From positions 24,376-88,375 of the forward strand of contig JAEUMG010000084.1 in NCBI GenBank assembly GCA_016793355.1: 64,000 bases of DNA, read 5' to 3'. The position numbers and the translations under genes were made by a program. Within the stretch, counting starts at the first letter, position 1; the number at the start of each line of letters is the position of its first letter. Shown piece by piece: positions 16,754-34,490 of the stretch. The notes under the pieces were generated by a model. It saw nothing but the letters and a program-made list of their open reading frames with translations, was not told the DNA's origin and did no database searches. This DNA comes from Hyphomicrobiales bacterium. Lineage in GTDB: Bacteria > Pseudomonadota > Alphaproteobacteria > Rhizobiales > Aestuariivirgaceae.

Positions 16754-17176
16754 TTCCGCCTGTCGCGGGTGAATTTCAGGTCAGAATGCTAGGTCACGCA
16801 CTGGCGGCTGCCAATCGACCGAAAGTAATACGGGTGTCGGCTCTACGACTTGACGTGGGTATCCTGGCAAGCAGGCCAAGGCGCCGACCTCGCCTCTGTT
16901 CCTCGTCCACATCGGTTCAATTCTTGGGCAAGGACGGTTCCATCACCCGACTTCACTCAATGCGCTATCGCCTACTGCACACGGATCGCACACGTCGACT
17001 TCTAAGAGATTGATTTCTTTGCCTTGTCGCTCCCATCCGTCATGGGTGCAACGGCGAATATTTTTCCCTTACAATTCAATATCTTGCCTTTACTATCCGA
17101 GAAAACAAACGTGTTCGTGCGCACACGATTTCGGAGAGGAGTGCACACGGATACCGGGCGTCGTCAAGCTAGCCTT

Positions 17177-17739
17177 TTACCTGGCCGGCTTGAGACTCGA
17201 CAGCCCTTCGATATTTGTGTCGGGCCTATTGCCCTCGTCTCCCGACAGCGTAACGATTTCGCGCGTTGTTTCCCCGGTCTCCCGATTCACGACCGATTTA
17301 GTGGCTGTTACAGCCACGATCTCATCGCTAAAGCGTCCGGCGGTCTGCGCGGCCGCGGTGCGCTGCTGCGACTGCAGCGCGTAGGCGTCCTGTCTTTCGC
17401 GCGAAATGCCATACCGGCCGGCTACCACTTCCGCGGTATCGATCATGGTCATATAGGCATCGTCACGCACGGCCACGAGTTCGGGATCGACATGCCCGAG
17501 ACTTCGACCGGCTAGCCGGCGCGCAATGCCGCCGTCCGGCCGATCGTGTGCTGCAATCCTTGGGATAGAGCGCAGCCGATGATGCAGTCGTCGATCTCTC
17601 CCGGCTCAACTCCCGAGCGTTCCACTGCGGCGCGAATCGCGTGTGCCGCAAGGGTCGGCGCCGATGTCGCGTTAAAGATGCCGCGATAGGCCCGGCCTAT
17701 CGGAGTCCTCGCCCTAGAAAGGATCAACACATCGCGCAT
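17177..17739 (-). pseudogene. acetyl-CoA acetyltransferase (thiolase) pseudogene: internal ~142-bp deletion plus 3' truncation
   Basis: Two ORF fragments (17512-17829 and 17177-17476) in different frames. They match residues ~1-75 and ~150-250 of the intact thiolase at 29852-31024. The active-site Cys region and the C-terminal third are missing. Confidence 0.8.
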
Positions 17740-17911
17740 CTCAGGCTGCTCCATTGACGGCATTCTCAATTTCGAGCCTACTCTGGCATTTGCCATTTTC
17801 CGGAACGAACTCTCCGGCTCGGTCGACAATCTTCGACCAGGAGGCCGCTATCAATTCAGGCGCGTCGGGTCCATCACCGACGAATAGGCCCGGCGTCAGC
17901 GTCACATGGAC
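17188..17911 (-). repeat. copy A of a duplicated SDR-3'end/thiolase-5' segment (partner 30322-31203)
   Basis: Direct nucleotide alignment by eye; best-conserved ~180 nt roughly 90-95% identical; boundaries approximate. Confidence 0.8.
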
Positions 17912-18619
17912 TGCTTCAAAGGACCCCGCACCGGCGCAAAGAATAGCGCGCGTCGGTGCGTTCTCGCTAACCAGAACCAGCACACCAGGACTCACGCAGC
18001 TGGGCTTCAGCAAGTCGAGTTCCTCCGGTGGCAGGAGGCCCTGTAGCATCTGCGTTGCCGCGGTCGGCGCGATGCAGTTGACGCGGATATTGTTGCGCGC
18101 CCCCTCCAGCGCAAGCGTCTGCATCAAGCCCACCAGCGCCATCTTGGCGGCGCCGTAATTTGACTGGCCGAAATTTCCATAGAGGCCGGACGATGACGTC
18201 GTCATCACGACGCGGCCGTAGTTCTGCGCGCGCATGCAATCCCACACGGCCTTGGTGCAGTTCACGGAACCCATCAGATGCACCTCAACCACCAGCCGGA
18301 AATCGGCAGTATCCATCTTGGCAAATGTCTTGTCGCGGAGAATGCCGGCATTGTTGACCAGGATGTCCACTCTACCCCAGCGCGAAATTGTGTCATCGAC
18401 CATCGCCTGTACGGCATCGAAATCCATAACCGATGCTGCGACCGCAACCGCCCCGCCGCCGACCGCCACGATCTCGGCAGCGACCGCCTCGGCCGCCGCT
18501 TGATCGAGATCATTGGCGACAACGCGCGCGCCGCGCTTCGCAAGCAGCAAGGCGTGCTCGCGGCCAAGACCATTTCCGGCGCCCGTGACGATGGCAACAC
18601 GTCCTGAGAGATCGATCAT
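17741..18619 (-). CDS. SDR family oxidoreductase, HSD17B4/MFE-2-type 3-hydroxyacyl-CoA dehydrogenase-like
   Basis: TGAGNGLG cofactor motif and YGAAK catalytic motif; start at ATG 18619 with AGGAAG upstream. Confidence 0.85.
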   Translation of the reverse strand: MIDLSGRVAIVTGAGNGLGREHALLLAKRGARVVANDLDQAAAEAVAAEIVAVGGGAVAVAASVMDFDAVQAMVDDTISRWGRVDILVNNAGILRDKTFAKMDTADFRLVVEVHLMGSVNCTKAVWDCMRAQNYGRVVMTTSSSGLYGNFGQSNYGAAKMALVGLMQTLALEGARNNIRVNCIAPTAATQMLQGLLPPEELDLLKPSCVSPGVLVLVSENAPTRAILCAGAGSFEAVHVTLTPGLFVGDGPDAPELIAASWSKIVDRAGEFVPENGKCQSRLEIENAVNGAA

Positions 18620-18694
18620 CAAGTTTCTTCCTTCTGGACGTGGGATCGCCAAGCTTGCGGAGACGACCCGAGGCCAAATGCGTGCTGTGGGTTT

Positions 18695-21361
18695 CTAGAA
18701 AACTGGATCGCGCTTGGCGCGGAACGCTGCAAGTCCCTTGGCGAGATCGCTACCCCTGATATGCTCCGCGAAGCTCTCCAGTTCGGCACGGATGCGTGCC
18801 GCGCGTGCGGTGCTTTGATTGGCTGGACGGGTCAACGCCTTGATCTGTCGAATGGCTTCCGGGCTTCGCCGGCAAATATCGTGGGCTATCTGCATTACTC
18901 TTTCCGTGAGACGTTCCCTTGGCACAACCTCGTTGACCAGGCCCCACTCCATAAGTGTCTCCGCTTCGACGAGAGTTCCAGTGTAGAAAAGCTGGGCGGC
19001 ATGCGATGGTTTTATTCGCTCGGCGAGCCTCACGGTCGCCCCGCCGGCAGGGACGATACCGTATTTGGCATGCCCATCGCCGATCTTCACACCTTCCACG
19101 GCGATGATCAGGTCACAGGCGAGGAGGAGTTCCAGGCCGCCGGCAACCGCTACGCCGTTTACAGCGCCGATGACCGGCACCGGCATGTCCTCGACCATCT
19201 GGATGACGTCCTGGTTGTGGCGCAGTGTGTCGATCAGCTTCGTCCCGCCGGCCTTCAGCATCATCTCGAATTCGATTAGGTCGCCACCCGCGCAGAAGGC
19301 ACGCCCGGCACCGGACAGGATCACGACGCGCAATCCCGGTAGATCCGCGACAGCACGGAGCCGGCGTTCGAGCGAATGCATCATCGCCTCGGAAGCCGCG
19401 TTCAGACTTTCGGGCCGGTCGAGCGTCAGGATGGCGACGCCGTTCTCAAATTCGAGCCGAACGGACTCTGCAGCCTGCTCGACGCTGCCCCGCACGAGAT
19501 AGGTCTGCGGCAGCGGCTTCAGGGTCTCTTCCAGTTCTGCGATCTGGCTATCCGCTGCACCTAAGAGCACGACCTCGACAAGCGTCCGCTTGCGCCCGTC
19601 CGTCGCGATATCGATCGTTGCCGATACGCTCCTACCGCAGATCCGTTCCGCCTCGAGCCGGACTTTCTCCTTGATCGCCAGGTCGCGGAGAGCCGGCTTG
19701 AAAATCTTGCCAACGGCGGTCACCGGAAGAGCGTCGATGATCAGAACACTCCTCGGTCGCGCGGGCGGTTCATGGACATTGGCTTCCAGATGGGCCTTCA
19801 GCGCCTCGAGATTTATCTGCGAGCCTGGCGCCGGCACGACGAAGAGCGTCGGGACTTCGCCGGCATATTGGTCCGGCATGCCGACGGCTGCACTGATTTG
19901 CACGCCGGGAAAATGGTTCGCCACGTCCTCGATCGCGGCCGGATCGATATTGTGGCCGCTCCTGATAATCAGGTCCTTCTCGCGCCCTGTGAGCGCGAGC
20001 CTTTCGTCATCGGTCAGGTATCCGACGTCGCCGGTCGTCAGCCAGCCATCATCGGCGAGCGTGCCGATATTGTGAACGGGATCGACATAGCCGGGAAAGA
20101 CCTGCGGCCCGCGCACCTGCACAAGACCGGTTTCGCCCGGCGCGCAGGGCGCATTGTTGTCGACGCCAAGCCGGACGATCCGCGTTTGCGAGAATGGTGC
20201 GCGAAAGCCGACGCTTCCCGCAAGCGGGGTGCCCCGGCCGGGATTGAAGGCGATGGCCGCCGCCGTCTCGGTCATCCCGTAGGTCTCGAACAGGCGTATT
20301 CCGGTCGCCGTTTCAAATCTTTCGCCGACCGCCTTTGGCAACACCGCGCCGCCGGTTACGGCCATCCTCACTGTGGACACGTCGGCCCCTGGCCTCCAGC
20401 TGTTTGTGAGCGCCGCAATCGAAGTAGGCACACCGCCGACGACCGTGGCGCCAAAATGCTCGACCAATTGCCAATAGGCATCGAGGACGGCCGGCGGCCG
20501 CAAGCCCCAGGGAGACGGCACGAGAACGTGACCGCCCGCCGCGAGCACGGATAGCCCGACCGTCATCGTCCCGCCGACATGGAAGAAAGGGAAACCGTTG
20601 ATAACGATGTCGTGCTCGTCGTATCCGAACACCTGCGCGAAGCCGAAGGCGGCATGGATCTGGTTGCCGTGGGTGAGCTGCACGAGCTTCGGCTGACCCG
20701 TCGTGCCGCCGGTGTGGAACAGCGCACATACCGTATCGCGATCCGCCGACGGTTCGAAGTCGAGCCCATCGGTCCGGCTTTGAGCCAGTGCCTCCTCGAG
20801 GTTCCGATATCCTCGGCGTCCCTCGCCGTCTCCGCCGATGACAAATACGTCGGTCAGCGTCGGCACCTGCGCGAGCACGCTCTCCGCCTTCGCCCAGCAG
20901 GTCTCATCCAGCGACCGTGCCGGGACAACGAGTATTGTCGCCTTTTCGGCGTTCAGAAGATCAATGATCGCGTCGCGGCTCAACAGGTAGTTCAGCGAAC
21001 TCGCAACGCCCGCCACCTGTGCTCCAAGCAGCAATGCCGGAACTGCCGGCAGCGTCGGCGACAGGAAAGCGACCATGCCATTTCCCGGCGAAGCGCCGAG
21101 CTTGCGGAACATGTTTGCGGCACAGGTGATCTGGGCGAGAAGCTGGCGATGGGTGAGTGCGACACCGATATCCACTGGGTCTGGCGAGCGCAGCACCGTC
21201 AGGGCCTTGCGGTCGCCGCCGTACCGCGCAGTCGCCAGGAACAAATCATAGAGATTGCGCGCGGTGACCAACTCGTCATAGGGCAGGCTCTCGATTGCGA
21301 CGATATCTTCGATCGTTCGCACGTCGATGACCGGACGCGTGGTCTTGAGCACGCGCTCCAT
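18695..21361 (-). CDS. acyl-CoA synthetase (AMP-binding) fused to a crotonase/enoyl-CoA hydratase-isomerase family domain
   Basis: Start at MERVLKTT (ATG 21361, 1-nt overlap with the upstream stop). Contains AMP motif LFHTGGTTGQPK and TGDVGY. The C-terminal ~265 aa carry FCAGGDL and AGGLELLLACD crotonase motifs. Confidence 0.8.
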   Translation of the reverse strand: MERVLKTTRPVIDVRTIEDIVAIESLPYDELVTARNLYDLFLATARYGGDRKALTVLRSPDPVDIGVALTHRQLLAQITCAANMFRKLGASPGNGMVAFLSPTLPAVPALLLGAQVAGVASSLNYLLSRDAIIDLLNAEKATILVVPARSLDETCWAKAESVLAQVPTLTDVFVIGGDGEGRRGYRNLEEALAQSRTDGLDFEPSADRDTVCALFHTGGTTGQPKLVQLTHGNQIHAAFGFAQVFGYDEHDIVINGFPFFHVGGTMTVGLSVLAAGGHVLVPSPWGLRPPAVLDAYWQLVEHFGATVVGGVPTSIAALTNSWRPGADVSTVRMAVTGGAVLPKAVGERFETATGIRLFETYGMTETAAAIAFNPGRGTPLAGSVGFRAPFSQTRIVRLGVDNNAPCAPGETGLVQVRGPQVFPGYVDPVHNIGTLADDGWLTTGDVGYLTDDERLALTGREKDLIIRSGHNIDPAAIEDVANHFPGVQISAAVGMPDQYAGEVPTLFVVPAPGSQINLEALKAHLEANVHEPPARPRSVLIIDALPVTAVGKIFKPALRDLAIKEKVRLEAERICGRSVSATIDIATDGRKRTLVEVVLLGAADSQIAELEETLKPLPQTYLVRGSVEQAAESVRLEFENGVAILTLDRPESLNAASEAMMHSLERRLRAVADLPGLRVVILSGAGRAFCAGGDLIEFEMMLKAGGTKLIDTLRHNQDVIQMVEDMPVPVIGAVNGVAVAGGLELLLACDLIIAVEGVKIGDGHAKYGIVPAGGATVRLAERIKPSHAAQLFYTGTLVEAETLMEWGLVNEVVPRERLTERVMQIAHDICRRSPEAIRQIKALTRPANQSTARAARIRAELESFAEHIRGSDLAKGLAAFRAKRDPVF

Positions 21362-22857
21362 CAGTGGACCGCGGCGTACATGATGGTTTCCTCGTCGGCC
21401 TTGTGGCCTTCGAACTCTTCGACGATCCGGCCCTGCCGGCATACCAGAATGCGATCGGAGAGTTGCAGAACCTCCGGCAAATAGGACGAGATCACCATCA
21501 CCGCGATGCCCTGGTCCGCGAGATGGTTGATAAGCTGGTGGATTTCGGCGATTGCGCCAACGTCGACTCCGCGGGTCGGCTCGTCGAAGATGATCAGCTT
21601 CGGCTTCTGCACCAGCGCCTTGGCGACCACAACCTTCTGCTGATTGCCGCCGGACAATTCGATAACGCGCGCATCGGCGTTGATGGTCTTGACGTTCAAT
21701 CGCGCGACCCATTCGTTCGCCATCGCTCGCATCTCGCGCATGCTGACGATGGCAGACTTCGCCTGCCCGCCGGCCATGGCCGCGAGATAGATATTCTCGG
21801 CGATCGACATAGTCTCGAAGAAGCCTTCGATCTTGCGGTCCTCGGTCACATAGATGATGCCGTCGCGAACCGCCGAGCGGGGTACCCGATAGCGCACTGG
21901 TCGGCCATTGAGGCGTATCTGGCCGCCATGGAAGAGATCGCGCTTCAAAACGCCGGCGACGACCTTTGCCGCCTCGGTGCGACCTGAGCCGATAAGACCG
22001 AAGATGCAGGTGATCTGCGCCGCAAAGACCGAGAAGGATGTGTTGCGCACCATATTGCCCATGGAGAGATTCTGCACGCTCAGAACCTTTTCACCGGCCG
22101 GGCGCACGCTGCGGTCCTTGTTCGATCCGTATAGTTCGCCGGTGAGCGTGCGGCCCACCATGGCGCGCACGATCTTCTCGCGGTCGAAGGCCGCCGTAAC
22201 CTCGGTCACCACATGCTCGCCGTCGCGCATCACGGTGATGCGGTCGGCGATGGCGAGCGCCTCCTCCAGGGCGTGGCTGATGAAGATGATCGAGACGCCG
22301 CGCTGTTTCAGGCGTTTGACGAGCGAGAAGAACTGGTGCTTTTCCTCGGGCGTGAGTGTCGCCGTCGGCTCGTCGAAAATGATCACCTGGGCATTGTGGT
22401 GCACCGCGCGTGCGATCTCGACCATCTGCTTCTGGCCGGCGCCAAGGCTCGACACCATCGCGGTCGGATCGACGGGAAAGTTGAGCGACTGGAGGAACTG
22501 CTGGCCGGCTATGTAGATGCCGCGCAATCTGTGGAAGCGCTTGTTGTCGGTGAGATAGATGTTCTGCGCGACGGTAAGCGAAGGCACGAGACTGGTCTCC
22601 TGGTAGACCATAGCAATGCCGCGCTTCAGCGCTTCAGACGGCGAGCGAAATTCGGCCCTTGCCCCGTTTATCCAAATCTCGCCGGTGGTGGGCTGGACGA
22701 CTCCGGCGATCATCTTGGTCAATGTCGACTTGCCAGCGCCGTTCTCGCCGAGCAATGCATGTACCTCGCCGCGATGAAGCGTGAAGGACACGTCCTTTAC
22801 CGCCGCGACACCGCGATATTCTTTCGTCGCTTTGCGGATATCGACGATCGGCGTCAC
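21361..22857 (-). CDS. sugar (CUT2, RbsA-like) ABC transporter ATP-binding protein, tandem NBD
   Basis: 498 aa; Walker [10 protein letters not shown] plus degenerate second GLIGSGRTE; GTG start overlapping the upstream stop (GTGA). Confidence 0.9.
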
Positions 22858-23933
22858 GCTTCGGCTCCTCCGAGAGGCGTGACGGGAAGCGACACGACGA
22901 CGCCGTCGCCACAGGCCGCAATGAAAACCTGTCCATCATGCTCGGCAACACTAGTCACGCCATGCGTCCGGCCGTCCGCGCGGCTGTGCAGGCTGGCACG
23001 CGGCTGAAACGCCCGGTCGAGCTTCACGCAAAGGCCGGCCGACATTGTCGGCGCCCACGGCTTGAGCAAGCCCAGATGCTTCACGCCGCCGCCCTGCAGC
23101 GACTCGCAAAAGCTGCGGCCGGATCGGAGTTTCGGCGCCACCCAAAATGCTTGCGGCACCTCGGCCATCATGCGCCTGCGGTAGGCGGACTCGCGCAAGA
23201 CGAATTCGACGAGTTGGCTGCGCGGCGCAAAAAGCGCCAGCCAATAACCATCCGTGGCGGGAGCGATCCGGCCCGGATAGGCCGGGAGGTCGGCGTAGAG
23301 CACCTTGAATCCTCTTTGATCGATCCTGACAAGCTGGTGCTTCCAAGCCTCGGAGAAGACCGGTCCTTCGGCGTCCGGGGCAAGGCCGGCCGGCCAGGCG
23401 AGACCATCGGCGAGCCGGGTGAATGTCCCGCTTTCGAGGTCGAGGCGCCAGACACTGCCGGAAGCATTGCGCTCAAGAAGATCGCGCTGCCAGTCAGCAG
23501 GGCCATTCTTCGCCGAACCATTGGCGATGTAGAGTTCGGAGTCTGTGCCGGCCATCGCGGTCATGCACGCAAGCGGTTGGGCGGGCTTGTAGCGGCGCCC
23601 GCCAAAGCAGCCACCTTCGATGACGATCTCGCCAGTGGCGAGTGCTATGGCGAGACATTCTTTGCCGATCGCGGCCAGACACAGGATTTCCGCATCGTAT
23701 TCGCTACGTTTATGCCATCGGCCTTGATCGAAGCGATGGATCGCTCTTCCCGAAGACGCCAGGACTTCGCTCGAAACCATTGCAAGACTGTCGACGCCGG
23801 CAAGCGGGAAGCGCGCCGCAGCCTCATCGAGCGCACGGTTCGGCCTGAATGCTCCGTCGAGCGGCGGCACGGTGACCGCAGCTTCTCCGCGGCCGAACAG
23901 ATTGTCGAAGGCGCGGGAGAATTCGACGATCAT
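22854..23933 (-). CDS. strictosidine synthase-like / SMP-30-like beta-propeller protein (free paralogue)
   Basis: 359 aa from [27 protein letters not shown] and [12 protein letters not shown] parallel LPGYPDNINRASDGSYWLAL and FAETWACRVSRY of the fused domain upstream. ATGA overlap at 23930-23933. Confidence 0.7.
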
Positions 23934-26044
23934 GCCCGGCCCCAGTAGGACCGCTGTCCTGTCCAACCGGCATCGACGCCCGCGAGTTTCAGCCGGCCGA
24001 CGCGGTTGTTCAGGATGCCACCGATATAGAGATACCCCTTGTGCTCCCGCATGGAGGTGATCATCGGATGATTTTCGCCACCAAGATCCCACAGCGTTTC
24101 AATGATGCGGCCGGTCTCGTCAAAGCGCAGCACGCAACCTGTATTGATGTTAGGATACATCCACTCGTCCGGCGCAATTCGTCGTGCCATGCGCTTGCGA
24201 AAGCCCGGCATCTTTAGCGCCAAATCGAGGGCCGGCGTCCGCATGCCGACCAGTGCCAGCCAGTAGCTACCGTCAGAAGCGCGGTTGATGTTGTCGGGAT
24301 AGCCCGGCAAGTCGGCGATCACCGTTTCGACCTGCCTCTGCTTCGGCCCATCGAACCAATAGCGGCTGACGCGGCAGGCCCAGGTCTCTGCGAACAGGAA
24401 CGATTGGCCATCGAGAGTCATGCAGATGCCATTCGGGAAGAGGAGATTCTTCAATACCGTGCGCGTCACACCGGTGCTCGGGTTGAAGCAGATGATGCGG
24501 CCATTGCCACGCGATTCCAGGCAGTCGACCGGCCATTCGTGCATCTCATAGCGGATAGTCGCCTCGCTGAAGAAGACGCGCCCATCGGGCGCGATGTCGA
24601 GATCGTCGGCAAGCCGCAATCGCGAATCGTCGATAACCGAAAACCAGGAGCGATTCGTCTCATCGGTGAGCTTCTCAATCTTGCGGTCGCGCGTGATGCG
24701 ATAGAGACCCATGCCACCGATGCAGCAGAGCAGCGAGCCATCGCGAGCGAACGCCATGCCGAGCGGCCGGCCACCCACATGGGCGAAGACCTCCTGCCGC
24801 GAATAGTCGGGTGCATGGAAGCGCACGATGTCGCCGGTGCGGTTGCCGGCATAGATGTTGTCGTCCTCGTCGAGAATGACGTCTTCCGGCCCGTCGATGC
24901 GGTTAAGTCCGATCGCCTCGACCGGCCGCAATCGGTCATTCAGTGCATATGGCGATTCTCCCTCCGTTGCCGGTGCGGGCGGCAGTTCTGCATAGGTTGG
25001 CGACACGTAGACCTTCGAGAGAAGCTTGTGCCGGTTCTTCAGCCAGCGCACGTCAATTGCGACCGCCGCCAGAAGAATAATGCCGAGCAGTAGCGAACTG
25101 CCTCCTCTAGTGATGCCCAGACGCACCAGACCGTTGACCATGATCATGACGATGATTGAGCCCATGATCGCCTTGGCCGCGGAGCCGCGACCGCCGCCGA
25201 GGCTGTTTCCGCCCAGCACTGCGGCGGTCAGGGCAGCGATTTCAAGCCCAACCCCGGTATCGGCGCCCGCGCCGCCCAGTCGCGATGCGAAGAGCAGGCC
25301 TGCAAGTGCACTCAGCGTTCCCGACACGACATAGGTTGCACAGATGACGCGGCGCACCGAAATGCCGACATTATGCGCCGAGCGCCGCGAGCCGCCAGTT
25401 GCGAGCACATGCCAGCCGGCGCGCGACCGCGTCAATACGAGGTGAGCAACAATGGCGACGATCGCGGCGACGACGACGCTAAACGGAAGTCCCAGGACAT
25501 ATCCCTCGCCGAGATAGTACCAGAAATCGGAATCAACGAATGCGGCGGCGATCGCGACGGAATATTTCAAGAGCAGCATGTCGACCACTGCCCTGACGAT
25601 AATCAGTGTGACCAGCGTGGTGAGGAAAGCGCGCAGGCGCAGATAGCCGACGAGCAGTCCGTTCACCAGGCCGACCGCCGCGCCGCAGGCCAGCGTGCCC
25701 ACGATGACCGCCGCCACGGGCCACTCGGCCACATTGAGCAGAGCGAGCGCGACGATGTTGCCGAGTGCGAAGGTGGACCCGACGCTCAAATCGATGCCGC
25801 CCGCCACCATCACGATCATCAGCGCCAGGACGATCAAGGCGAACTCGCCCCATTGCCGCATCAGGCTGGAGATGCTTGCTGGGCCGAAGAAATCGGGAAT
25901 CAGCGACCCGAATACGAGGGCGACCGCGAGAAGGATGAGCAGCGGGATCGCGTTGTCGACCCAGCGCTTGGTCAGGATCTCGCCAAGGAGGTGATCGGGC
26001 ACGTAGCGGTAGCGCCAGCGTGTAATCCTGTCTGATACAGCCAT
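23930..26044 (-). CDS. CUT2 ABC permease (RbsC-like) fused to a C-terminal strictosidine synthase-like beta-propeller
   Basis: Residues ~1-348 are a polytopic RbsC-type permease ending in RWLKNRHK. Residues ~376-711 carry GRPLGMAF, NGRIICFNPSTG, LLFPNGICMTLDGQSFLFAETW and LPGYPDNI motifs of the SSL/APMAP family. Start uncertain (ATG 26044 or TTG 26065). Confidence 0.8.
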   Translation of the reverse strand: MAVSDRITRWRYRYVPDHLLGEILTKRWVDNAIPLLILLAVALVFGSLIPDFFGPASISSLMRQWGEFALIVLALMIVMVAGGIDLSVGSTFALGNIVALALLNVAEWPVAAVIVGTLACGAAVGLVNGLLVGYLRLRAFLTTLVTLIIVRAVVDMLLLKYSVAIAAAFVDSDFWYYLGEGYVLGLPFSVVVAAIVAIVAHLVLTRSRAGWHVLATGGSRRSAHNVGISVRRVICATYVVSGTLSALAGLLFASRLGGAGADTGVGLEIAALTAAVLGGNSLGGGRGSAAKAIMGSIIVMIMVNGLVRLGITRGGSSLLLGIILLAAVAIDVRWLKNRHKLLSKVYVSPTYAELPPAPATEGESPYALNDRLRPVEAIGLNRIDGPEDVILDEDDNIYAGNRTGDIVRFHAPDYSRQEVFAHVGGRPLGMAFARDGSLLCCIGGMGLYRITRDRKIEKLTDETNRSWFSVIDDSRLRLADDLDIAPDGRVFFSEATIRYEMHEWPVDCLESRGNGRIICFNPSTGVTRTVLKNLLFPNGICMTLDGQSFLFAETWACRVSRYWFDGPKQRQVETVIADLPGYPDNINRASDGSYWLALVGMRTPALDLALKMPGFRKRMARRIAPDEWMYPNINTGCVLRFDETGRIIETLWDLGGENHPMITSMREHKGYLYIGGILNNRVGRLKLAGVDAGWTGQRSYWGRA

Positions 26045-26071
26045 TTCTTTCTGCTCGGATCGCAAATGCGG

Positions 26072-26108: not shown

Positions 26109-27107
26109 CTACTTCTTCGCCGGCAGATCCCAACACGACGCTGGCGTCATGTTGTCCTTCGTCAGGAAGGTCAGCGGCGTGAACAATGTTGTCTTGGTCG
26201 TGCCCGCCGGCTGCTTCAATTGCAGCAATTGTTTGATCATGGTCGCCATGTCGCGGGCCTGGCCCGGAACGAAGTAGACAACCACTTCGGAATAAGTGCC
26301 ATTGGCGAGACCGTCACAGGCCATTCGGTTGCCGCCGCCCTGGGTGAGCAGGTAGACGTTCTTGCCGGACTCCTTGATCGCCGCCGCCGTGCCGACGTCC
26401 ATGACGTCCCAGAAGCCGGTAATGGCGCAGAGGTCCGGGTTCTGCTGGATAACGGTCGCCGCGATGTTCTTGGCCTTGGTCGCATCCCAGTCCGCTGCCT
26501 GGTTCGAGACAAGCTGAATTTCGGGGTGCTTCGACAGGACATTGCTGATGCCCTGCATCTGGTAGATGCTCGCCGCTGCCGTCAGCACGCCCTGGGTGAT
26601 CGCCACCTTGCCGCTGCCGCCATTGGCGGGTGAGCATACGTCGACTAGCCGTTGTCCGATCTTTTCGCCCATGCCGACATAATCAGCGCCGACGAAGACA
26701 TCGGTCGAGTAACTGGAGCGCATGTTGACTTGCACGACATAGATGCCCGCTTCCTCGGCCTTCTTAAGCAATCGCGCGTAGGACTGGACGTCTGGATTGT
26801 GCACGACGATCACATCGGGTTTTTCGGAGATGAGCGACGTGATCGCCTGAGCGCCGGCATCGGTGCTCCAATTGGGATCGCGGATATCGAAGGTGACGCC
26901 AAGCGGTTCCAGCGCCTCCTTGAGGCCGGCGGCCCAGCCCTCGGTCAGATCGAATCCCATGGCCACAGGTACATAGGCCACCTTTTTGCCGATGAACGAT
27001 TCGTAGTACGGCGCACGCGTCGGGTCGTCGATACCTTCCTGCGCCACCGCGACGCCAGTCGATAGAGTAAGAGCCGCGGCGATTATACTTGTCTTGATCA
27101 GCTTCAT
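26109..27107 (-). CDS. periplasmic sugar-binding protein, ribose/CUT2 type
   Basis: 332 aa; signal peptide MKLIKTSIIAAALTLSTGVAVAQ; strong GGAGGAG Shine-Dalgarno sequence; Peripla_BP_1/4-like sequence. Confidence 0.9.
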   Translation of the reverse strand: MKLIKTSIIAAALTLSTGVAVAQEGIDDPTRAPYYESFIGKKVAYVPVAMGFDLTEGWAAGLKEALEPLGVTFDIRDPNWSTDAGAQAITSLISEKPDVIVVHNPDVQSYARLLKKAEEAGIYVVQVNMRSSYSTDVFVGADYVGMGEKIGQRLVDVCSPANGGSGKVAITQGVLTAAASIYQMQGISNVLSKHPEIQLVSNQAADWDATKAKNIAATVIQQNPDLCAITGFWDVMDVGTAAAIKESGKNVYLLTQGGGNRMACDGLANGTYSEVVVYFVPGQARDMATMIKQLLQLKQPAGTTKTTLFTPLTFLTKDNMTPASCWDLPAKK

Positions 27108-27132: not shown

Positions 27133-28107
27133 CTAGATGTCCCCCTGTTGAGCGGTCTGCTCGTCGCGGGGGTTAAGGATCGTGTCGATCATGATCGCGG
27201 TTAGTAGGATGATGCCCTTGATGACATTCTGGACGGTGTACTGGATGTCCATGATCGTCATTCCGTTGAGCAGAACGCCGATGAGCAGTGTGCCGACGAT
27301 AACGTTGCGGATATTGCCTTTGCCGCCGGAAAGACCGATGCCGCCCAGCACGACGACCAGGATCACGTCATAGACGTAGGTCGAGATGGCGAGGCGTGTA
27401 TTCATGCTCGCCACCGAACCGGCAGTGACGATGCCGGCAATGTAGCCGATGAGCGACGAAAGGACATATTGCAGGACGATGATCGGGCGCGCGGGCACGC
27501 CGGCTACCCGCGCAGCGAGGAGATTATCCCCGATTGCGCGCAAGTAACGGCCTGAGCGCGCATAGCGCAGAAATAGGTACCCGACCAGGCAGACGACTGC
27601 GAAGACGAAGATCGGCACCGGAATGCCGAAGAGCTTTCCCTGGCCGAGCCACAGGATCTGCAGCGCCGAGTCGGGCATGTAGACGACGTCGAGATCAAAG
27701 AGGAAGTAGCGGCCAAAGCCATAGACCAGCGTGCCCATGGCGAGCGTCGCAAAAATCGCAGGCACCTCGACATAGCCGACCAGCCATCCGTTTACCGCGC
27801 CGATGAACAGGCTGAAGACGAGTCCGATGGCAAGAGCTTCTGCCAACGGCATGTCACGCCCGATCAAGGACAGCGTCCAGGCCACAGACACGGCCATCAG
27901 CGAGACCAGCGAAAGGTCGATGCCACGGCCGATCACCACCAGGCCCATCGCTACGCCGAGGATTCCCAGGATGGAAACGCTGCGCACGAGGTTCAGGATG
28001 TTGTCGGCGGTCAGGAATCCAGGCAGCGCAACCGCAAATAGAATGCACAACAACAACGCCAGACCGAAGACGATCCGCTCCTGGCTCAGACCGGCGAAGA
28101 CCTGCAT
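27133..28107 (-). CDS. CUT2 ABC permease (RbsC-like)
   Basis: Polytopic membrane ORF; ATG 28107 preceded by GGGAGGGGG. Confidence 0.85.
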   Translation of the reverse strand: MQVFAGLSQERIVFGLALLLCILFAVALPGFLTADNILNLVRSVSILGILGVAMGLVVIGRGIDLSLVSLMAVSVAWTLSLIGRDMPLAEALAIGLVFSLFIGAVNGWLVGYVEVPAIFATLAMGTLVYGFGRYFLFDLDVVYMPDSALQILWLGQGKLFGIPVPIFVFAVVCLVGYLFLRYARSGRYLRAIGDNLLAARVAGVPARPIIVLQYVLSSLIGYIAGIVTAGSVASMNTRLAISTYVYDVILVVVLGGIGLSGGKGNIRNVIVGTLLIGVLLNGMTIMDIQYTVQNVIKGIILLTAIMIDTILNPRDEQTAQQGDI

Positions 28108-28356
28108 CCTGCCCCCTCCCATGGGCCAAGCACATCAACCTCGAGGTCGATGGCGGGAGAGGGAGACTATCCGGGCTGCCCGCGAAACTCTTTTCCGATG
28201 GCGCAGTAGTCTTGCCTGAGCGTGCAGTACTTGCTCCGCAGCAGGTATATGGGCTAGTAATTGCGGGTCCCAGAGGTTGAAGCCGTGAGCGAGACGATCG
28301 AGTTTCGCCTGAAAAATGGCCGGCTCGGGACCTGTGACCACGGGTGGGAGGAGCCC

Positions 28357-29301
28357 ATGGATCTCGTCTTCTCAACGGACGACTATGTTCAGTCCGAACG
28401 CTACAACGCTTGGCGTGACGCCATCTGCGACGTCTATGTGCATGTCGACGTCGCGGCGGTCGATCCGGAGCGGTATCGCGGCTTTATCCGGGAGGCCAAG
28501 TTCGGCGAAGTGGTGCTCACCGACATCCTCCTGTCGGAGCAACGCATCAGGCGCAACAACCAGCACATCTCCAAACTGGATAAGGACTGTTACTATCTGC
28601 AGCTTCTGCACAAGGGCAGCGTAAGCGTCCTTCAGCGCGGCGAGACACACCGGTCGAACCCGGCGCGCGGCGCGATCTTCTCTGCAACCGAGGAGTATGA
28701 GCTCTATCCCCAAGGTGAAGTGCGCTCGTTTTATCTCGAGCTCCCGCGCGATGAGTTCGCGCATCGCTTTCCTCGCGAGCGGATTCCGGTGTCGGCATCG
28801 CTCAACACCGCACAAGGGCTCGGGCGCATTGCCACCGAATTCTGCGCTTCGCTCGCCACAGAAGGCTCGAAGCTTGACGCCCCCTTGCGCGCCGGCCTCG
28901 GTAACCAGTTGATGGATATGCTTGCCTTCGCGCTGCTGACGTCGGAAGGCGATATGCCTGCGGCCGAAGGTTCGGTGAAGAAGGCGCGTCTCATGCACGT
29001 GCAGCAATGGATCGAGGCGCATATCAGGGACGCCGATCTCACACTCGAGAAGGTCGCCAGCGCCAATGGCATGTCGCTTCGCTATCTGCACGCCCTGTTC
29101 GAGGGCTGCGAGATGTCGGTTTCCGAGTGGATCTGGAACCGCCGCTTGCAACTCGCCTATGACAGCCTCGCAAGAGGCGGTGGGCGTTCAATCACTTCGA
29201 TCGCGTTCGATCATGGCTTCAACAGTTCGGCGCATTTCAGCACGATGTTCAAACGCAAATATGGGCTGTCGCCCAGAGATGTGGCCCGGCATATGCCGTA
29301 A
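28357..29301 (+). CDS. AraC family transcriptional regulator (AraC_binding_2-type N-terminal domain)
   Basis: C-terminal double HTH (LEKVASANGMSLRYLHALF; IAFDHGFNSSAHFSTMFKRKYGLSPRD); start at ATG 28357 (MDLVFSTDDY). Confidence 0.85.
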   Translation: MDLVFSTDDYVQSERYNAWRDAICDVYVHVDVAAVDPERYRGFIREAKFGEVVLTDILLSEQRIRRNNQHISKLDKDCYYLQLLHKGSVSVLQRGETHRSNPARGAIFSATEEYELYPQGEVRSFYLELPRDEFAHRFPRERIPVSASLNTAQGLGRIATEFCASLATEGSKLDAPLRAGLGNQLMDMLAFALLTSEGDMPAAEGSVKKARLMHVQQWIEAHIRDADLTLEKVASANGMSLRYLHALFEGCEMSVSEWIWNRRLQLAYDSLARGGGRSITSIAFDHGFNSSAHFSTMFKRKYGLSPRDVARHMP

Positions 29302-29851: not shown

Positions 29852-31024
29852 TCAGAGCACCTCGAACAGGCCGGCTGCGCCCATGCCGCCCCCGACGCAC
29901 ATCGTGATCACCACATGCCGGACGCCGCGCCGCCTGCCTTCGATAAGAGCGTGGCCGACCATGCGTGCGCCCGACATCCCGTAGGGATGGCCTATCGATA
30001 TCGCGCCGCCATTGACGTTAAGCAGCTCATTGGGAATGCCAAGCCTGTCCCGGCAGTAGATTACCTGGACGGCGAATGCCTCGTTGAGTTCCCAAAGTCC
30101 AATATCGTCCATTGCCAGACCGAAGCGCTGCAAAAGCTTGGGCACGGCAAAGACCGGGCCGATTCCCATTTCATCCGGCCTGGTGCCGGCGACCGCCATG
30201 CCCACATAGCGGCCGAGCGGTCGAAGCCCCTTCCTTTCGGCGATGCCTGCCTCCATCAGGATGCAAGCGGCCGCGCCGTCCGAAAGCTGGCTGGCATTGC
30301 CCGCCGTGATATTTCCCCTCTCCCTGACCGGTTTAAGGTTCGATAGCCCTGCAAGGCTGGTGTCGGGCCTGTTGCCTTCATCGGCCGACAGCGTGACGGT
30401 CTCGCGCGTTGATTCCCCGGTTTGCCGATTCACGACCGATTTTGTGGCTGTCACAGCCACGATCTCATCGCGAAAGCGCCCCGCGGTCTGCGCGGCCGCG
30501 GTGCGCTGCTGCGACTGCAGCGCATAGGCGTCCTGTCTTTCGCGCGAAATGCCATACCGGCCGGCGACCACTTCCGCGGTATCGATCATGGCCATATAGG
30601 CATCGTCATGCATGTCCACGAGTTCGGGATCGGCATGGGTGCGCAATTCAGGCGTCTGCACGTGCGAGATCGACTCGACCCCACCCGCCAGAACGATGTC
30701 CATGCGGTCCACGATAATCTGCTTTGCAGCCGTTGCGATGGCCATCATGCCCGAGGAGCATTGGCGATCGATCGTCATGCCCGAGACTTCGACCGGCAAG
30801 CCGGCGCGCAATGCCGCCGTCCGGCCGATGGTGTGCTGCGATCCTTGGGGTAGAGCGCAGCCGATGATGCAGTCGTCGATCTCTCCCGGCTCAACTCCCG
30901 CGCGTTCCACCGCGGCGCGAATCGCGTAGGCCGCAAGGGTCGGCGCCGATGTCGCGTTAAAGGCGCCGCGATAGGCCCGGCCGATCGGGGTCCTCGCCGT
31001 AGAAACGATCACAGCATCACGCAT
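29852..31024 (-). CDS. acetyl-CoA C-acetyltransferase / 3-ketoacyl-CoA thiolase
   Basis: 390 aa from [20 protein letters not shown]; active-site [38 protein letters not shown]. Confidence 0.9.
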
Positions 31025-31203
31025 CTCAACCTGCTCCCTTCTCGGCATTCCCGACTTCGGGTCTGCCCTCTCTCTTGCCACCGTGCGGGACGGGCAATCC
31101 GGCCCGGTCGACAATCTCCGACCATGAGGCCAAGATCAACTCGGGCAGGTCGATTCCGTCGCCCGAGGGTCTGCCCGGTATCGGCAATTAGCGTCACATG
31201 GAC
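30322..31203 (-). repeat. copy B of the duplicated SDR-3'end/thiolase-5' segment (partner 17188-17911)
   Basis: Nucleotide alignment by eye; same CATCTCA stop/start junction as copy A. Confidence 0.8.
31026..31203 (-). pseudogene. degenerate remnant of the SDR 3' end
   Basis: Aligns at nucleotide level (more diverged than the thiolase part) with 17741-17911, the C-terminal ~57 codons of the intact SDR; no upstream SDR body present. Confidence 0.55.
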
Positions 31204-31255
31204 CCGCTGAAGGTATTTGTGCTTATGGCTTTATCCGGAACATGGCGATGCGGAT

Positions 31256-31956
31256 ATGCCTGAGTTTGCTCTTGATACAAGGGAATCGTGCGCCCCAATG
31301 CCAGCGTCCGACGTGTTGCGCCTCTCGGCCTTTGGCGCCGTCATGGAGATTGCCTGCAACAGCCCCGAGGTGCTGGATGCATGCTCAAGCGCTTTGCCCT
31401 CCTACTGGAAGGGGGTGGAGGGCACGCCGCCTGACATGCGGTTCGCCATTGAGAAACTGACCGGCATACCTGACGAGGACGCACGCTTCCTGTTCCTGGA
31501 GAACGGCGCCCGGCTGACCGCCGGCATTACCGGTGCGCAGGCAAGCCGGCTTCTCGCCAGCCGGATGGACTATCACATGGGTGCCTATGCGCGCCACTGC
31601 GCCTTCATCCACGCTGGTCTTGTCCTTCATGAAGGGCGCGCGATTCTGCTTCCGGGTCTCAGTCGCGCCGGCAAGAGCACGTTGACGGCCGCGCTGGTGC
31701 GCGCCGGCGCCAAATATGTTTCAGACGATGTGGCGGTGATCGGCGGCGATGGCCGCGTCCACCTGCTCACGCATCGCATGACTCTGCGCCAGGATATGGC
31801 CGGTACCCTCAGCCCACCGGCAGGCGAGCACCAAGCGGCCCTCCGCGAAGGATCGGCACCTGTCGGTGCAATCCTGGTTCTCACCTATCAGGAAAGCGCG
31901 GGACCGCTTGCGTGGTATCCGCTCAGTGCGGGTGAGACCGTGCTCCGGCCGCACAA
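31256..31956 (+). CDS. HprK-related serine kinase-like protein; reading frame appears disrupted near 31.94-31.96 kb
   Basis: FIHAGLVLHEGRAILLPGLSRAGKSTLTAALVRAGAKYVSDDV resembles the HPr kinase C-terminal P-loop core. The frame runs on to 32278, but that tail is Arg/Ser-rich and overlaps a frame with much better codon usage. Confidence 0.6.
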
Positions 31957-32382
31957 ATGCGGGCCTATGTTCCCGGAAGCCCGGCGGATGCGGCGGCCTT
32001 TGCGGGCGAGCCGCTCGTCCTGCCGGCAGAAGACGGCGAGCCAGTCCTGCGCTGCGAGCGGATCATCCAGTGGTATAATCTCAACGGCGCGTTCCAGACC
32101 GCCAGCTACTGGAAAAGCGGCGAAGGCAGCTGTTTGGTACTTGAGCAAGTCCACCGGCCGTCTTCGATACCGGAGGTCGACGGCTTCGCCGGCGAGCGCG
32201 TCGATCTGGACGATCGCCGGTCGGCGCAACTCCACGCCATGCCGGCGTCAGATCGCTCCGTCGGGACAGTTGTACTGATCGAGCCGCTAAGCAACAGGCG
32301 CTGGCTGGCGTACCGAGCCAGCGGCATGGACAGGGACGCGGTCCTGGCCATCGCACGGAACTGCATACCCCGTGCGGGCTGA
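31957..32382 (+). CDS. unknown protein or frameshifted C-terminal part of the HprK-like gene
   Basis: 141 codons with about 78% G/C at third positions by hand count, versus poorer usage in the competing frame; no family recognised. Confidence 0.45.
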   Translation: MRAYVPGSPADAAAFAGEPLVLPAEDGEPVLRCERIIQWYNLNGAFQTASYWKSGEGSCLVLEQVHRPSSIPEVDGFAGERVDLDDRRSAQLHAMPASDRSVGTVVLIEPLSNRRWLAYRASGMDRDAVLAIARNCIPRAG

Positions 32383-32386
32383 AGAC

Positions 32387-33571
32387 ATGATGTCATCGTC
32401 CGACAATGATCCGGTCCGCGCTTGCCTGCGCTGGGATGACGCCGGCGACCGCGCGTTGCGCGGCCTCGATGCGTCGGGCTGGCTGGCGGTGATGGAGGTT
32501 GTCCGGCGACGGCACGGGCAAGCCCTGCTGGCCCGACGCCTGTCGCGCGCGCCGGACCTGACCGTGCCGGAGGATGTAGTGGAGGAGCTGCAGCGCTACA
32601 AACTCGCTGTGGCTGCGCGGGCGCTGGCGGGGCTCGCCCGGCTCGCGCCCGCGGTTGAGGCGTCGGGTGTGCCGGTAATGGCGCTGAAGGGCCTTGATCT
32701 CGCAAGCCGCATCTATGGCGATTTCGGAAGCCGGCCGATGGGCGACATGGACATCCTGGTCCGGCCGGAGCATGTGGGAAAGATGGCGGCGGCCCTGCAG
32801 GCCCAGGGCTTCCGGGCGTGTTCAGCCCTGCGGCAATCCTCCCATCACCAGGTGTTTTACTCACCCCTGCCGGGCGGCCTGCCGGTCGAGCTGCATTGGG
32901 CGCTCGGCTGCAATGCCGGTCAAACCGACCCGGCGGAGCTGCTCGAAGCAGCGTGGCGGGAAGCGGAGCAGATCGACATCGCCGGTTCTCAGTTTCTTGT
33001 GATGAACCGGCAGCATCTGCTGCTCTATCTCTGCCACCATCTAGAGCGGCATCTGTTCAATACGCCGCTCACCCAAGTCTGGGATCTGGGCGAGATCCTG
33101 CAACAGGCGGGTACCGGTTTCGACTGGCAGCGTTTCTGGGAGCATTGCGACCGGTACGGTCAGCGCAAGGGTGCGCAAGCCGCAATGCATCTCGCTGCAG
33201 CCTGTCTCGGCATCCGGGTTGGCACCCCGCCCTTACCCCCCGAAGTGCAGGACCTGCTTCCCGACATTGCCGCCAATCTCGGGCGGTATCCCCAGAGTGA
33301 GGCAAGAGAGCCAAGTGTGGACCTTGTGCTGCTCTTCGGCGCGCGAACGCCGCTCTCGATCCGCTGGCGAATCCTGCGCCGGACACTGTTTCCTTCGCGC
33401 CGCCTGCTGGCCGAGGCGGGTGGCGGCGGGGCCGGGCCGGCTTCCTACGCGGCGCTTTGGTGGAAAGTGCTGACCAATTTCGCGCGCAAGCGGATATTTG
33501 CGCGGATCGTTGCTCCGCCCCTGCGAACTCGCTCCAGCCGCGCCGCCAGGCTGAGCGAATGGTTGCGATAG
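32387..33571 (+). CDS. nucleotidyltransferase family protein (NTP_transf_5-like, Pol-beta fold)
   Basis: 394 aa from ATG 32387; GSRPMGDMDILV = hG[GS]x(n)DxD NTase motif; overall resemblance to the 'uncharacterised nucleotidyltransferase' family that accompanies HprK-related kinases. Confidence 0.75.
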   Translation: MMSSSDNDPVRACLRWDDAGDRALRGLDASGWLAVMEVVRRRHGQALLARRLSRAPDLTVPEDVVEELQRYKLAVAARALAGLARLAPAVEASGVPVMALKGLDLASRIYGDFGSRPMGDMDILVRPEHVGKMAAALQAQGFRACSALRQSSHHQVFYSPLPGGLPVELHWALGCNAGQTDPAELLEAAWREAEQIDIAGSQFLVMNRQHLLLYLCHHLERHLFNTPLTQVWDLGEILQQAGTGFDWQRFWEHCDRYGQRKGAQAAMHLAAACLGIRVGTPPLPPEVQDLLPDIAANLGRYPQSEAREPSVDLVLLFGARTPLSIRWRILRRTLFPSRRLLAEAGGGGAGPASYAALWWKVLTNFARKRIFARIVAPPLRTRSSRAARLSEWLR

Positions 33572-33968: not shown

Positions 33969-33971
33969 GAC

Positions 33972-34319: not shown

Positions 34320-34490
34320 GCGTTCTCCCTGCACATGCTCCGCACGACTCGGCGGGCCGGAGCAAGATAGCGTCAATCCGGCTCAGTCTCACCCCCGCTT
34401 CGACAGACAGCATTGACCGGCACGCAGCCGCTATTGCCCGGCCGGGAATGGCAGGGATGCCGAATTCCGATGGGGATGGAGCGGCGGCCG

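Follow-up and report, generated by a model that had tools for sequence, protein, structure and literature searches.

A CUT2-type ABC permease fused to a strictosidine-synthase-like propeller, and the conserved bacterial gene module around it

Could a bacterial importer carry on its own membrane subunit an enzyme that transforms the substrate on arrival? This question is raised by a gene in a 64,000-nucleotide stretch of DNA from a Hyphomicrobiales bacterium of the family Aestuariivirgaceae (assembly GCA_016793355.1, contig JAEUMG010000084.1, positions 24,376 to 88,375), hereafter called the window, which denotes the whole stretch analyzed. A sequence-only reading had described one open reading frame (ORF) at 23930-26044, without naming a strand, as an ATP-binding cassette (ABC) permease joined to a strictosidine-synthase-like (SSL) β-propeller. 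We could confirm the single ORF and assign it to the minus strand; all motifs quoted for it (RWLKNRHK, GRPLGMAF, NGRIICFNPSTG, LLFPNGICMTLDGQSFLFAETW, and LPGYPDNI) were found in the minus-strand translation. A gene on the plus strand at 23930-26044 was ruled out, as the translation is full of stops. The mechanical ORF extends over 23930..26065 and begins with TTG; the conserved ATG at 26044 yields 704 amino acids plus the stop codon (23930-23932), and nearly all homologues share this length.

A permease and a propeller in one reading frame

To define the two halves of the fusion, its product was compared with Pfam and NCBIfam models, and four Pfam domain matches exceeded their gathering cut-offs. 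These comprise BPD_transp_2 (residues 58-327, 5.6e-34, 117.9 bits at a cut-off of 26.8, profile positions 2-268 of 269), SSL_N (residues 365-409, 1.5e-12, 47.6 bits at a cut-off of 18.9), Str_synth (residues 480-566, 2.2e-21, 76.2 bits at a cut-off of 25), and SGL (residues 415-600, 2e-14). Furthermore, the NCBIfam models RbsC, AraH, AlsC, and MglC aligned end to end with residues 23-331. The complete RbsC-type membrane domain postulated earlier is thus supported by the BPD_transp_2 match in Pfam and by the RbsC/AraH coverage in NCBIfam. None of the NCBIfam equivalog cut-offs for named sugar systems (RbsC, AraH, AlsC, LsrC/D, and others) was reached by the fusion; the best equivalog score was that of RbsC with 153.9 bits against a cut-off of 398, and the other scores were also far below theirs. 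With scores so far under these cut-offs, the membrane half is a complete CUT2 permease that is not orthologous to any of the named sugar transporters. A PDB sequence search with the permease half gave no match even at an E value of 10.

Three segments can be delimited on the minus strand. Residues 1-333 (25046..26044) form the complete ten-helix CUT2 permease domain, as judged by Pfam, NCBIfam, AlphaFold2, and a positive-inside count. Residues 334-375 (24920..25045) form a conserved basic junction, WLKNRHKLLSKVYVSPTY, which was delimited by an alignment of 29 sequences and by AlphaFold2. Residues 376-704 (23933..24919) form a six-bladed SSL/N6P β-propeller, as judged by Foldseek, PDB sequence matches, and metal-ligand columns. 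In the AlphaFold2 model (pLDDT of 78), the helices of the fusion span residues 26-48, 55-80, 88-105, 110-134, 139-166, 188-206, 230-256, 267-277, 289-308, and 313-345. The last one, transmembrane (TM) helix 10, extends through RWLKNRHKLLSKV and is followed by a coil (346-375) and the propeller (376-686). The coil is Pro-rich and overlaps the first part of the SSL_N match. Across the alignment of 29 sequences, the junction pattern D[VI][RK]W.KN[RK].K...VY[VI].P is kept.

A sequencing error near the junction, either a frameshift or a missed stop, could have joined two adjacent genes, and the reading frame was therefore compared across loci. A single uninterrupted ORF of 696-733 amino acids was present in 28 of 29 complete genome loci and in all 21 complete metagenome loci, i.e., in 49 complete loci. 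The lone exception (L026) stems from an assembly that is frameshifted throughout the contig. Independent gene callers gave single products of 706-724 amino acids. In a survey drawing on 5.8 billion proteins, more than 120 clusters (90% identity) were at least 79% identical to the window protein and shared the same four domains and a length of 690-712, mostly 704, amino acids. A profile search extended the membership to 55% identity, and hundreds of database proteins share a near-identical fusion length. The propeller alone, used as query against 1.84 billion cluster representatives, retrieved about 15 more clusters (50% identity) that carry it as the C-terminal half of proteins of about 700 amino acids, and the N-terminal permease half was confirmed in eleven aligned members of these.

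Among species-representative genomes, the hosts are Rhizobiaceae, Mesorhizobium, Shinella, Azospirillum, Acetobacteraceae, Roseiarcus, and Rhodobacteraceae/Paracoccaceae; further hosts are Variovorax, a Burkholderiaceae metagenome-assembled genome (MAG), Arenicellales, Desulfatiglandales, and the actinomycete Amycolatopsis deserti. The architecture, which the sequence-only reading had proposed to survey, is thus widespread over five bacterial classes (Alpha-, Beta-, and Gammaproteobacteria, Desulfatiglandales, and Amycolatopsis). This distribution marks the fusion as old as well as genuine. Nothing was found in favor of an artefact, as the fragmentation of L026 runs through its whole contig, and we regard this explanation as refuted by the 49 independent loci with one ORF, the near-identical lengths in hundreds of proteins, and the conserved junction.

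Orientation, fold, and metal site of the propeller

The side of the membrane on which the propeller resides depends on the number and orientation of the helices that precede it. A family-averaged hydropathy profile revealed ten hydrophobic cores and no hydrophobic segment after residue 340 of the fusion, and the AlphaFold2 model contains ten TM helices; both bear out the earlier claim that no TM segment lies beyond the permease. For CUT2 permeases, ten TM segments are also the commonest prediction (PMC3654945). Positive charges were distributed asymmetrically, with 17.7 Lys and Arg residues on predicted inner loops vs. 2.9 on outer loops (means of 29 sequences). By region, these means amount to 5.1 for the N-terminus, 5.8 for the loop 206-231, 4.7 for the 18 residues after TM10, and 0-1.1 for each alternate loop, and the 18 residues past TM10 contain 0.4 Asp and Glu residues beside their 4.7 Lys and Arg residues. 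The arginine-rich loop 206-231 is presumably the ATPase-coupling loop, and exactly four helices follow it.

Comparison with free-standing relatives gave two further indicators. In each of the eight closest bacterial relatives inspected (35-39% identity), the N-terminus is a hydrophobic signal or anchor with no basic cluster behind it. Cys residues number 4-8, mostly odd, in the fused propeller, and 0-2 in the signal-anchored free-standing relatives. The fusion linker VSPTYAELPPAPATEGESPYALNDRL is homologous to the post-anchor segment of the free-standing SSL proteins (PSPID..W.PP..P.L.G...N..L); in effect, TM10 of the permease took the place of the signal-anchor, in the opposite orientation. 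Judged from sequence and model, a cytoplasmic orientation of the propeller is very probable. The sequence-only reading had predicted the same, and every topology indicator that we computed (helix count, charge, and Cys content) places the C-terminus inside. The location had also been called unusual, which holds relative to the signal-anchored free-standing proteins, but a cytosolic N6P propeller is not unusual in itself: cytoplasmic N6P enzymes exist, e.g., Drp35 and SMP30.

One protein of the collection, P0121 (347 amino acids, 60% identical to the fused propeller), stands alone. It starts exactly at the linker, MVAGSQSPYAQNDKL, contains five Cys residues, and lacks both a signal peptide and a TM segment. 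P0121 represents either a soluble form that arose by natural splitting or the remnant of a disrupted fusion gene.

Regarding the fold, Foldseek gave target-normalized TM-scores of 0.75-0.79 between the fused domain and strictosidine synthases and TGW6 from rice, and of 0.68-0.78 to SMP30, LRE, DFPase, and Drp35; RPA3624 was also matched. PDB sequence matches of the fusion included TGW6 (1.3e-20) and strictosidine synthases (about 1e-13). The identity of the propeller as an SSL domain, as first proposed from its motifs, is therefore supported by the SSL_N, Str_synth, and SGL profiles and by the structural matches. A set of four conserved metal ligands is the hallmark of hydrolases in the N6P superfamily; most strictosidine-synthase-like proteins retain this set, which only true strictosidine synthases lost (PMC4215206). 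In the fusion, the predicted metal ligands are E387 (GPED), D480 (ADDLD; Asn in one clade), N538 (FPNG), and D584 (PDNI), an assignment made by motif correspondence with SMP30/SGL motifs, partly from general knowledge, and not from a solved structure. All four columns are kept in 29 of 29 genome fusions. In the metagenome fusions, three of the four motifs were scored and found intact in 21 of 21. Because the ligands are present in every locus-derived fusion scored, the fused propeller is probably an active hydrolase.

A Pictet-Spenglerase activity like that of strictosidine synthase was considered and rejected. Strictosidine synthase proper uses the catalytic Glu309 within His307-Phe308-Glu309; this residue aligns with Thr663 of the fusion, beside a three-residue gap (HMMER), and the metal ligands are retained. 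Related propellers were also seen in other architectures. P0217 and P0239 (685 and 636 amino acids) combine an SSL propeller with an N-terminal stretch that resembles, by eye, a fumarylacetoacetate-hydrolase-like domain, and have no TM segment. In P0225, P0228, and P0266, the propeller is preceded by a large N-terminal domain followed by TM helices.

The fused propeller is accompanied by a second one. The gene SSL2 (22854..23933, minus strand) encodes a soluble, diverged propeller paralogue of 359 amino acids, as indicated by its overlap with the fusion gene, by alignment, and by AlphaFold2. Its ATG overlaps the TGA of the fusion as ATGA, an ATGA or GTGA overlap was seen again in most loci, and its stop codon overlaps the GTG start of the following ATPase gene, as read from the coordinates. 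Wherever a locus reaches this far, SSL2 is located downstream of the fusion. It shares 27% identity over 150 amino acids with the fused domain (E value of 2e-17; hhalign probability of 99.3%), and its only Pfam match, to Str_synth, is below threshold (E value of 0.0055). AlphaFold2 models SSL2 as a six-bladed propeller (pTM of 0.80), for which strictosidine synthases (Foldseek TM-score of 0.70) and TGW6 are the top PDB matches. Neither a signal peptide nor a TM segment was found in SSL2. Regarding the metal site, it has Asp at the first ligand column, and Thr, a variable residue, and Gly, Ala, or Ser at the second to fourth. The SSL2 family comprises 3059 clusters at E ≤ 1e-3, which are annotated as "hypothetical protein" or "strictosidine synthase".

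SSL2 is best seen as a degenerate, obligatory partner, and its role is probably structural, i.e., it may heterodimerize with the fused propeller or dock on the transporter. Two of its elements caught our interest, an almost invariant insert of about 30 residues (266-297) and a conserved N-terminal peptide (residues 1-24). Both have an AlphaFold pLDDT below 50, a pattern typical of segments that fold on a partner, and on this modeling basis they are candidate docking elements.

The five-gene module and its neighbors

The fusion and SSL2 belong to a five-gene module in the order permease 1, binding protein, permease 2::SSL, SSL2, and tandem ATPase, which is collinear in every locus extending far enough. 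The sequence-only reading saw the fusion but missed the SSL2 paralogue and this module. In the window, all five genes lie on the minus strand. Permease 1 (27133..28122, 329 amino acids) is a plain RbsC-type CUT2 subunit (BPD_transp_2, 2.1e-25; end-to-end RbsC/AraH alignment), precedes the binding-protein gene wherever the contig is long enough to include it, and is the expected heterodimer partner of the fusion. The periplasmic substrate-binding protein (26109..27107, 332 amino acids; Peripla_BP_4, 1.9e-42) carries an N-terminal Sec-type signal, MKLIKTSIIAAALTLSTGVAVAQEG, and is distant from solved CUT2 binding proteins (best PDB match 1e-15). The ABC ATPase (21361..22857, 498 amino acids) is of the RbsA/AraG/XylG type with tandem nucleotide-binding domains (NBDs; two Pfam ABC_tran matches), and its NCBIfam AraG and XylG matches at 1e-140 are under the equivalog cut-offs. 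A Peripla_BP_4 protein and a tandem-NBD ATPase adjoin the fusion both in the window and in every other locus extending far enough.

Within 10 kb of ordinary CUT2 permeases, no SSL1 (fused propeller) or SSL2 homologue was found in 47 loci from the same scan, which makes the SSL pairing specific to this module. The best-conserved part of the module is the fused propeller, with 56-89% identity to the window across loci; the corresponding values are 41-86% (permease half) and 34-70% (SSL2). Several genomes contain more than one copy. Tandem copies occur within single loci in L028 (6-4383 and 7961-14258) and L032 (7858-14726 and 18034-22448), and Mesorhizobium qingshengii has two copies on separate contigs (L016 and L033). 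Such duplicates suggest paralogous modules with different substrates.

Further genes flank the module in the clade of the window, which comprises L001, L026, L028, and L030 as well as L118 and L119 at 72% identity. An acyl-CoA ligase::enoyl-CoA hydratase-family fusion (18695..21364, minus strand, start approximate; Pfam AMP-binding, AMP-binding_C, ECH_1, and ECH_2) directly follows the ATPase in L001, L026, L118, and L119 (called at 885 amino acids in the latter two), and L028 and L030 end before this position. With about 885-889 amino acids, it represents a second gene fusion in the same operon. A short-chain dehydrogenase (SDR) gene lies downstream in the same direction (17741..18652, minus strand; Pfam adh_short, 8e-52), and an intact thiolase gene is located on the other side of the transporter (29852..31114, minus strand; Pfam Thiolase_N and Thiolase_C). 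The order in L026 is ligase::hydratase, SDR, thiolase, and the thiolase of the window probably belongs to the same catabolic set. A divergent AraC-family regulator (28261..29301, plus strand; Pfam AraC_binding_2 and HTH_18) is found upstream of the module in all six loci of the clade. The neighbors in the window fit a breakdown from lactone or ester to acid, CoA thioester, and β-oxidation-like degradation; they do not identify the compound.

Two relics are present in this region. A degraded thiolase copy lies just downstream of the SDR gene (17162-17829, minus strand) and matches the intact thiolase over residues 1-115 and 160-270 (76-82% amino acid identity). Immediately upstream of the intact thiolase gene, a remnant of the 3' end of the SDR gene was found (31029-31178, minus strand; 60% over 50 amino acids). 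This looks like a local segmental duplication, by which the junction of SDR and thiolase came to lie across the transporter from its former place. An ORF with a weak match to the HPr-kinase C-terminal domain (31217-33571, plus strand) adjoins an NTP_transf_5 "uncharacterised nucleotidyltransferase" (33606-34376, minus strand), after which come two tandem Lin0512-family genes; all of these appear unrelated to the transporter.

A different setting was identified in Shinella (L011) and in Mesorhizobium sp. ASY16-5R (L031). Here, the module is located between genes for a degradative NAD-dependent 3-hydroxy-3-methylglutaryl-CoA (HMG-CoA) reductase and an HMG-CoA lyase. In these two loci, which were scored with models, the reductase reached 447 and 446 bits (TIGR00532, cut-off 260) and the lyase 394 and 400 bits (cut-off 246), and the genes lie on one strand with intergenic gaps of 0-66 bp, beside a divergent MocR-type regulator. 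HMG-CoA reductase and/or lyase genes were found beside the module in 13 of 13 informative loci of the L011 clade (metagenome scan plus the two genomes), in two gene orders, with the module either embedded between both genes or preceding both of them together. This pair of enzymes is reportedly the mevalonate-degradation pair of Pseudomonas mevalonii. For the L011 clade, a lactonase-type domain in an HMG-CoA setting points to mevalonolactone as the possible transported species, at the level of gene context. As a neutral, pyranose-like δ-lactone, mevalonolactone would be a plausible ligand for a sugar-type binding protein. An N6P propeller with the corresponding activity has been described, as Drp35 hydrolyzes mevalonolactone at 478 µmol/min/mg, a rate that exceeds those on the other lactones assayed by a factor of 100 or more (PMC6052127).

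Elsewhere, the module is flanked by genes for a CoA ligase, an acyl-CoA dehydrogenase, and an enoyl-CoA hydratase (L020, L022, and L003), a carboxylesterase (L032), a tannase-like protein (L025), and aldehyde oxidoreductases or aldehyde dehydrogenases (L027, L008, and L033). A set of class-IV aminotransferase, CMD-family, and zinc-dependent alcohol dehydrogenase genes was found in L009, L010, and L029, and CMD-family genes with or without the alcohol dehydrogenase in L013-L017. The neighbors are consistently enzymes of carboxylic-acid or ester metabolism. In a Roseiarcus MAG (L006:7281-9532), and at this locus only, an APH-family phosphotransferase and an acyl-CoA-dehydrogenase-family gene directly follow the ATPase; we take this pair to resemble the LvaA/LvaC-type machinery of 4-hydroxy-acid catabolism, in which the acids derive from γ-lactones.

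Proposed function, alternatives, and significance

The reading that we favor, to which we give even chances, is that the fusion serves a binding-protein-dependent CUT2 importer as its second membrane subunit and carries a cytoplasmic, metal-dependent SSL/N6P lactonase or esterase, so that hydrolysis is coupled to import. The periplasmic binding protein would capture a neutral, sugar-like cyclic ester, which the heterodimer of permease 1 and permease 2 and the tandem ATPase would translocate. At the cytoplasmic exit, the propeller tethered to TM10 would open the ester bond and thereby convert a neutral lactone, assumed to be passively membrane-permeant, into a trapped hydroxy-acid anion. The anion would then enter a dedicated catabolism, which in the clade of the window may comprise the ligase::hydratase fusion, the dehydrogenase, and the thiolase. 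In the Shinella/Mesorhizobium clade, it would be passed to HMG-CoA reductase and lyase, implying conversion of mevalonolactone to mevalonate. SSL2 would be made in a fixed ratio by translational coupling and act as a non-catalytic partner.

Several observations weigh against import-coupled hydrolysis. The AlphaFold model of the fusion has a pTM of 0.58, with only moderate inter-domain confidence. SSL2 lost three ligands, which indicates that the fold can persist in this setting without a canonical metal site, and five distant metagenomic fusions (P0122, P0137, P0139, P0140, and P0142) lost two to four ligand residues and may represent non-catalytic or re-purposed lineages. These degenerate-ligand fusions are 38-50% identical to the full-length window protein, and examples of their motifs are GPRD, FPSG, and PGSIG. 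With respect to the substrate, ligand inference from the PDB matches of the binding protein was dropped, as these are too distant (1e-15 at best) to provide a clue. No HMG-CoA reductase or HMG-CoA lyase homologue was found in the window, and a single catabolic gene beside the module in all clades was sought and not found, as the flanks are clade-specific. Finally, the Ca-lactonase RPA3624, a related superfamily member, does not accept mevalonolactone (PMC9843451), so that specificity or activity is not to be assumed from the fold.

Some of these observations would also suit propellers that are regulatory or ligand-binding modules and not enzymes, which would bind the imported compound or a metabolite formed from it in the cytoplasm and might then gate the transporter by trans-inhibition or pass the ligand on as a cytoplasmic chaperone. 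SSL2 is conserved and always present without three of the four ligands, several distant fusion lineages have degenerate ligand sets, and conserved loops with low model confidence occur in both propellers (266-297 in SSL2; 463-476, 498-512, and 603-629 in the fused domain), as expected for interaction surfaces. However, the fused propeller keeps its four ligands in every scored genome fusion over five classes, with the scored motifs intact in the metagenome loci, and it is the slowest-evolving part of the module. Moreover, the mevalonate-operon context supplies a concrete step that requires an enzyme, namely lactone opening. Trans-inhibition has parallels in the C-terminal domains of MalK, MetN, and ModC, but these known domains reside on the ATPase and not on the permease. 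Taken together, we consider a regulatory role unlikely.

An active enzyme with non-hydrolytic chemistry (a lyase, a cyclase, an isomerase, or a Pictet-Spengler-type condensation), perhaps with a remodelled site of SSL2 as second active site, much as strictosidine synthase itself arose out of metal-dependent ancestors, is less probable still. It would agree with strictosidine synthases being the best structural matches, with the presence in the SSL subgroup of enzymes that gave up the metal site for new chemistry (PMC4215206), and with SSL2, which keeps Asp at the first ligand column and many invariant residues. The replacement of Glu309 by Thr663, the full hydrolase-type ligand set of the fused domain, and the ester hydrolase TGW6 as nearest solved sequence relative all argue against it. 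A periplasmic propeller, anchored by the last permease helix and processing or capturing the substrate before import like the anchored SSL proteins and APMAP, appears very improbable. The closest free-standing relatives (35-39% identity) are all anchored and share the homologous post-anchor segment, and predictors disagree for some CUT2 permeases, with 7-12 TM segments (PMC3654945). Such an orientation is nevertheless difficult to reconcile with an even helix number of ten, in combination with basic charges at the N-terminus (5.1), the coupling loop (5.8), and the junction (4.7) vs. 0-1.1 in alternate loops. It also conflicts with the basic cluster RWLKNRHKLLSK, which has no counterpart after the anchor of the free-standing relatives, with 4-8, mostly odd, Cys residues vs. 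0-2 in exported relatives, and with a soluble SSL2 that lacks a signal peptide.

Import-coupled hydrolysis by a cytoplasmic propeller can be related to several known systems. With importers of the RbsABC/AraFGH type (CUT2, Transporter Classification 3.A.1.2), the module shares a BPD_transp_2 subunit with ten predicted TM segments, a tandem-NBD ATPase, and a Peripla_BP_4 protein, and with LsrCD and YtfT/YjfF a heterodimeric permease pair. In contrast to CUT2 importers, it has a C-terminal enzyme-like domain of 370 residues on one permease and a fifth gene, SSL2, before the ATPase. We know of no permease-borne enzyme domain or SSL2-like gene in characterized CUT2 systems. The rice protein TGW6 (Os06g0623700, PDB 8kg3) is the closest solved sequence relative, ranks among the top structural matches, and belongs to the same SSL subgroup, but it is a plant protein without transporter fusion and shares only about 23% identity over the propeller. 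TGW6 is reported to be an ester hydrolase acting on the glucose ester of indole-3-acetic acid (IAA), and publications on grain size in rice and on auxin mention its locus ID. The Staphylococcus aureus protein Drp35 (PDB 2dg0/2dso), which is said to be cytoplasmic, belongs to the same superfamily of six-bladed, metal-dependent propellers (Foldseek E value of about 1e-9). Unlike the fused domain, it is SGL-like and not of the SSL subgroup, shares about 15% identity, is soluble and stands alone, and feeds a biosynthetic and not a catabolic pathway. Its genomic and biochemical link to mevalonate (PMC6052127) parallels the operons of the L011 clade.

The signal-anchored bacterial SSL proteins and APMAP/hemomucin likewise have SSL_N and a propeller right after a membrane helix, and the bacterial proteins are the closest free-standing homologues (35-39% identity); whereas their N-terminal anchor puts the propeller outside, TM10 and the basic cluster of the fusion are predicted to put it inside. 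Attachment of an enzyme to an ABC transporter is known from exporters of the PCAT1/CvaB type, in which a C39 peptidase is fused to the transporter and processing is coupled to transport. To our knowledge, these are the only well-known case of a substrate-processing enzyme attached to an ABC membrane subunit, and none is known for importers. The C39 exporters differ in fold and in having an N-terminal peptidase that acts before translocation, whereas the module described here belongs to an importer with a C-terminal domain proposed to act after it. Within the papers covered, our literature search found no described permease::SSL or permease::lactonase fusion, paralogue pair, or enzyme-fused ABC importer, and nothing on mevalonolactone uptake or a link of the module to mevalonate operons. 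Both halves of the fusion belong to well-known families, and the sequences are already public under generic or misleading names.

In the textbook view, ABC importers only transport, and the accessory parts known for them are either extracellular binding proteins or domains that regulate the ATPase to which they are attached. A more far-reaching and tentative interpretation, which we consider possible but doubtful, is that the module represents a hitherto unrecognized "transform-on-arrival" class of importers. In such a class, a permease-attached hydrolase and an obligatory pseudo-enzyme paralogue would be positioned at the exit, and ring-opening would be physically, and perhaps mechanistically, coupled to transport. 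This would be a binding-protein-dependent analogue of group translocation and could serve the dedicated uptake of lactones, including mevalonolactone, in soil and marine bacteria.

If import-coupled hydrolysis holds true, a catabolic enzyme on the membrane subunit, in five classes and always together with a degenerate paralogue, would represent a new design principle, with chemical trapping at the exit. Bacterial lactone-degrading enzymes are described as under-studied (PMC9843451), and the module would provide a concrete, genetically tractable candidate for bacterial lactone uptake. Uptake of mevalonolactone is predicted for a Mesorhizobium strain that has been sequenced and for a Shinella genome. 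This reading would also correct the annotation of thousands of entries that are currently named "ribose transport system permease", "SMP-30/gluconolactonase/LRE family protein", "strictosidine synthase", or "hypothetical protein".

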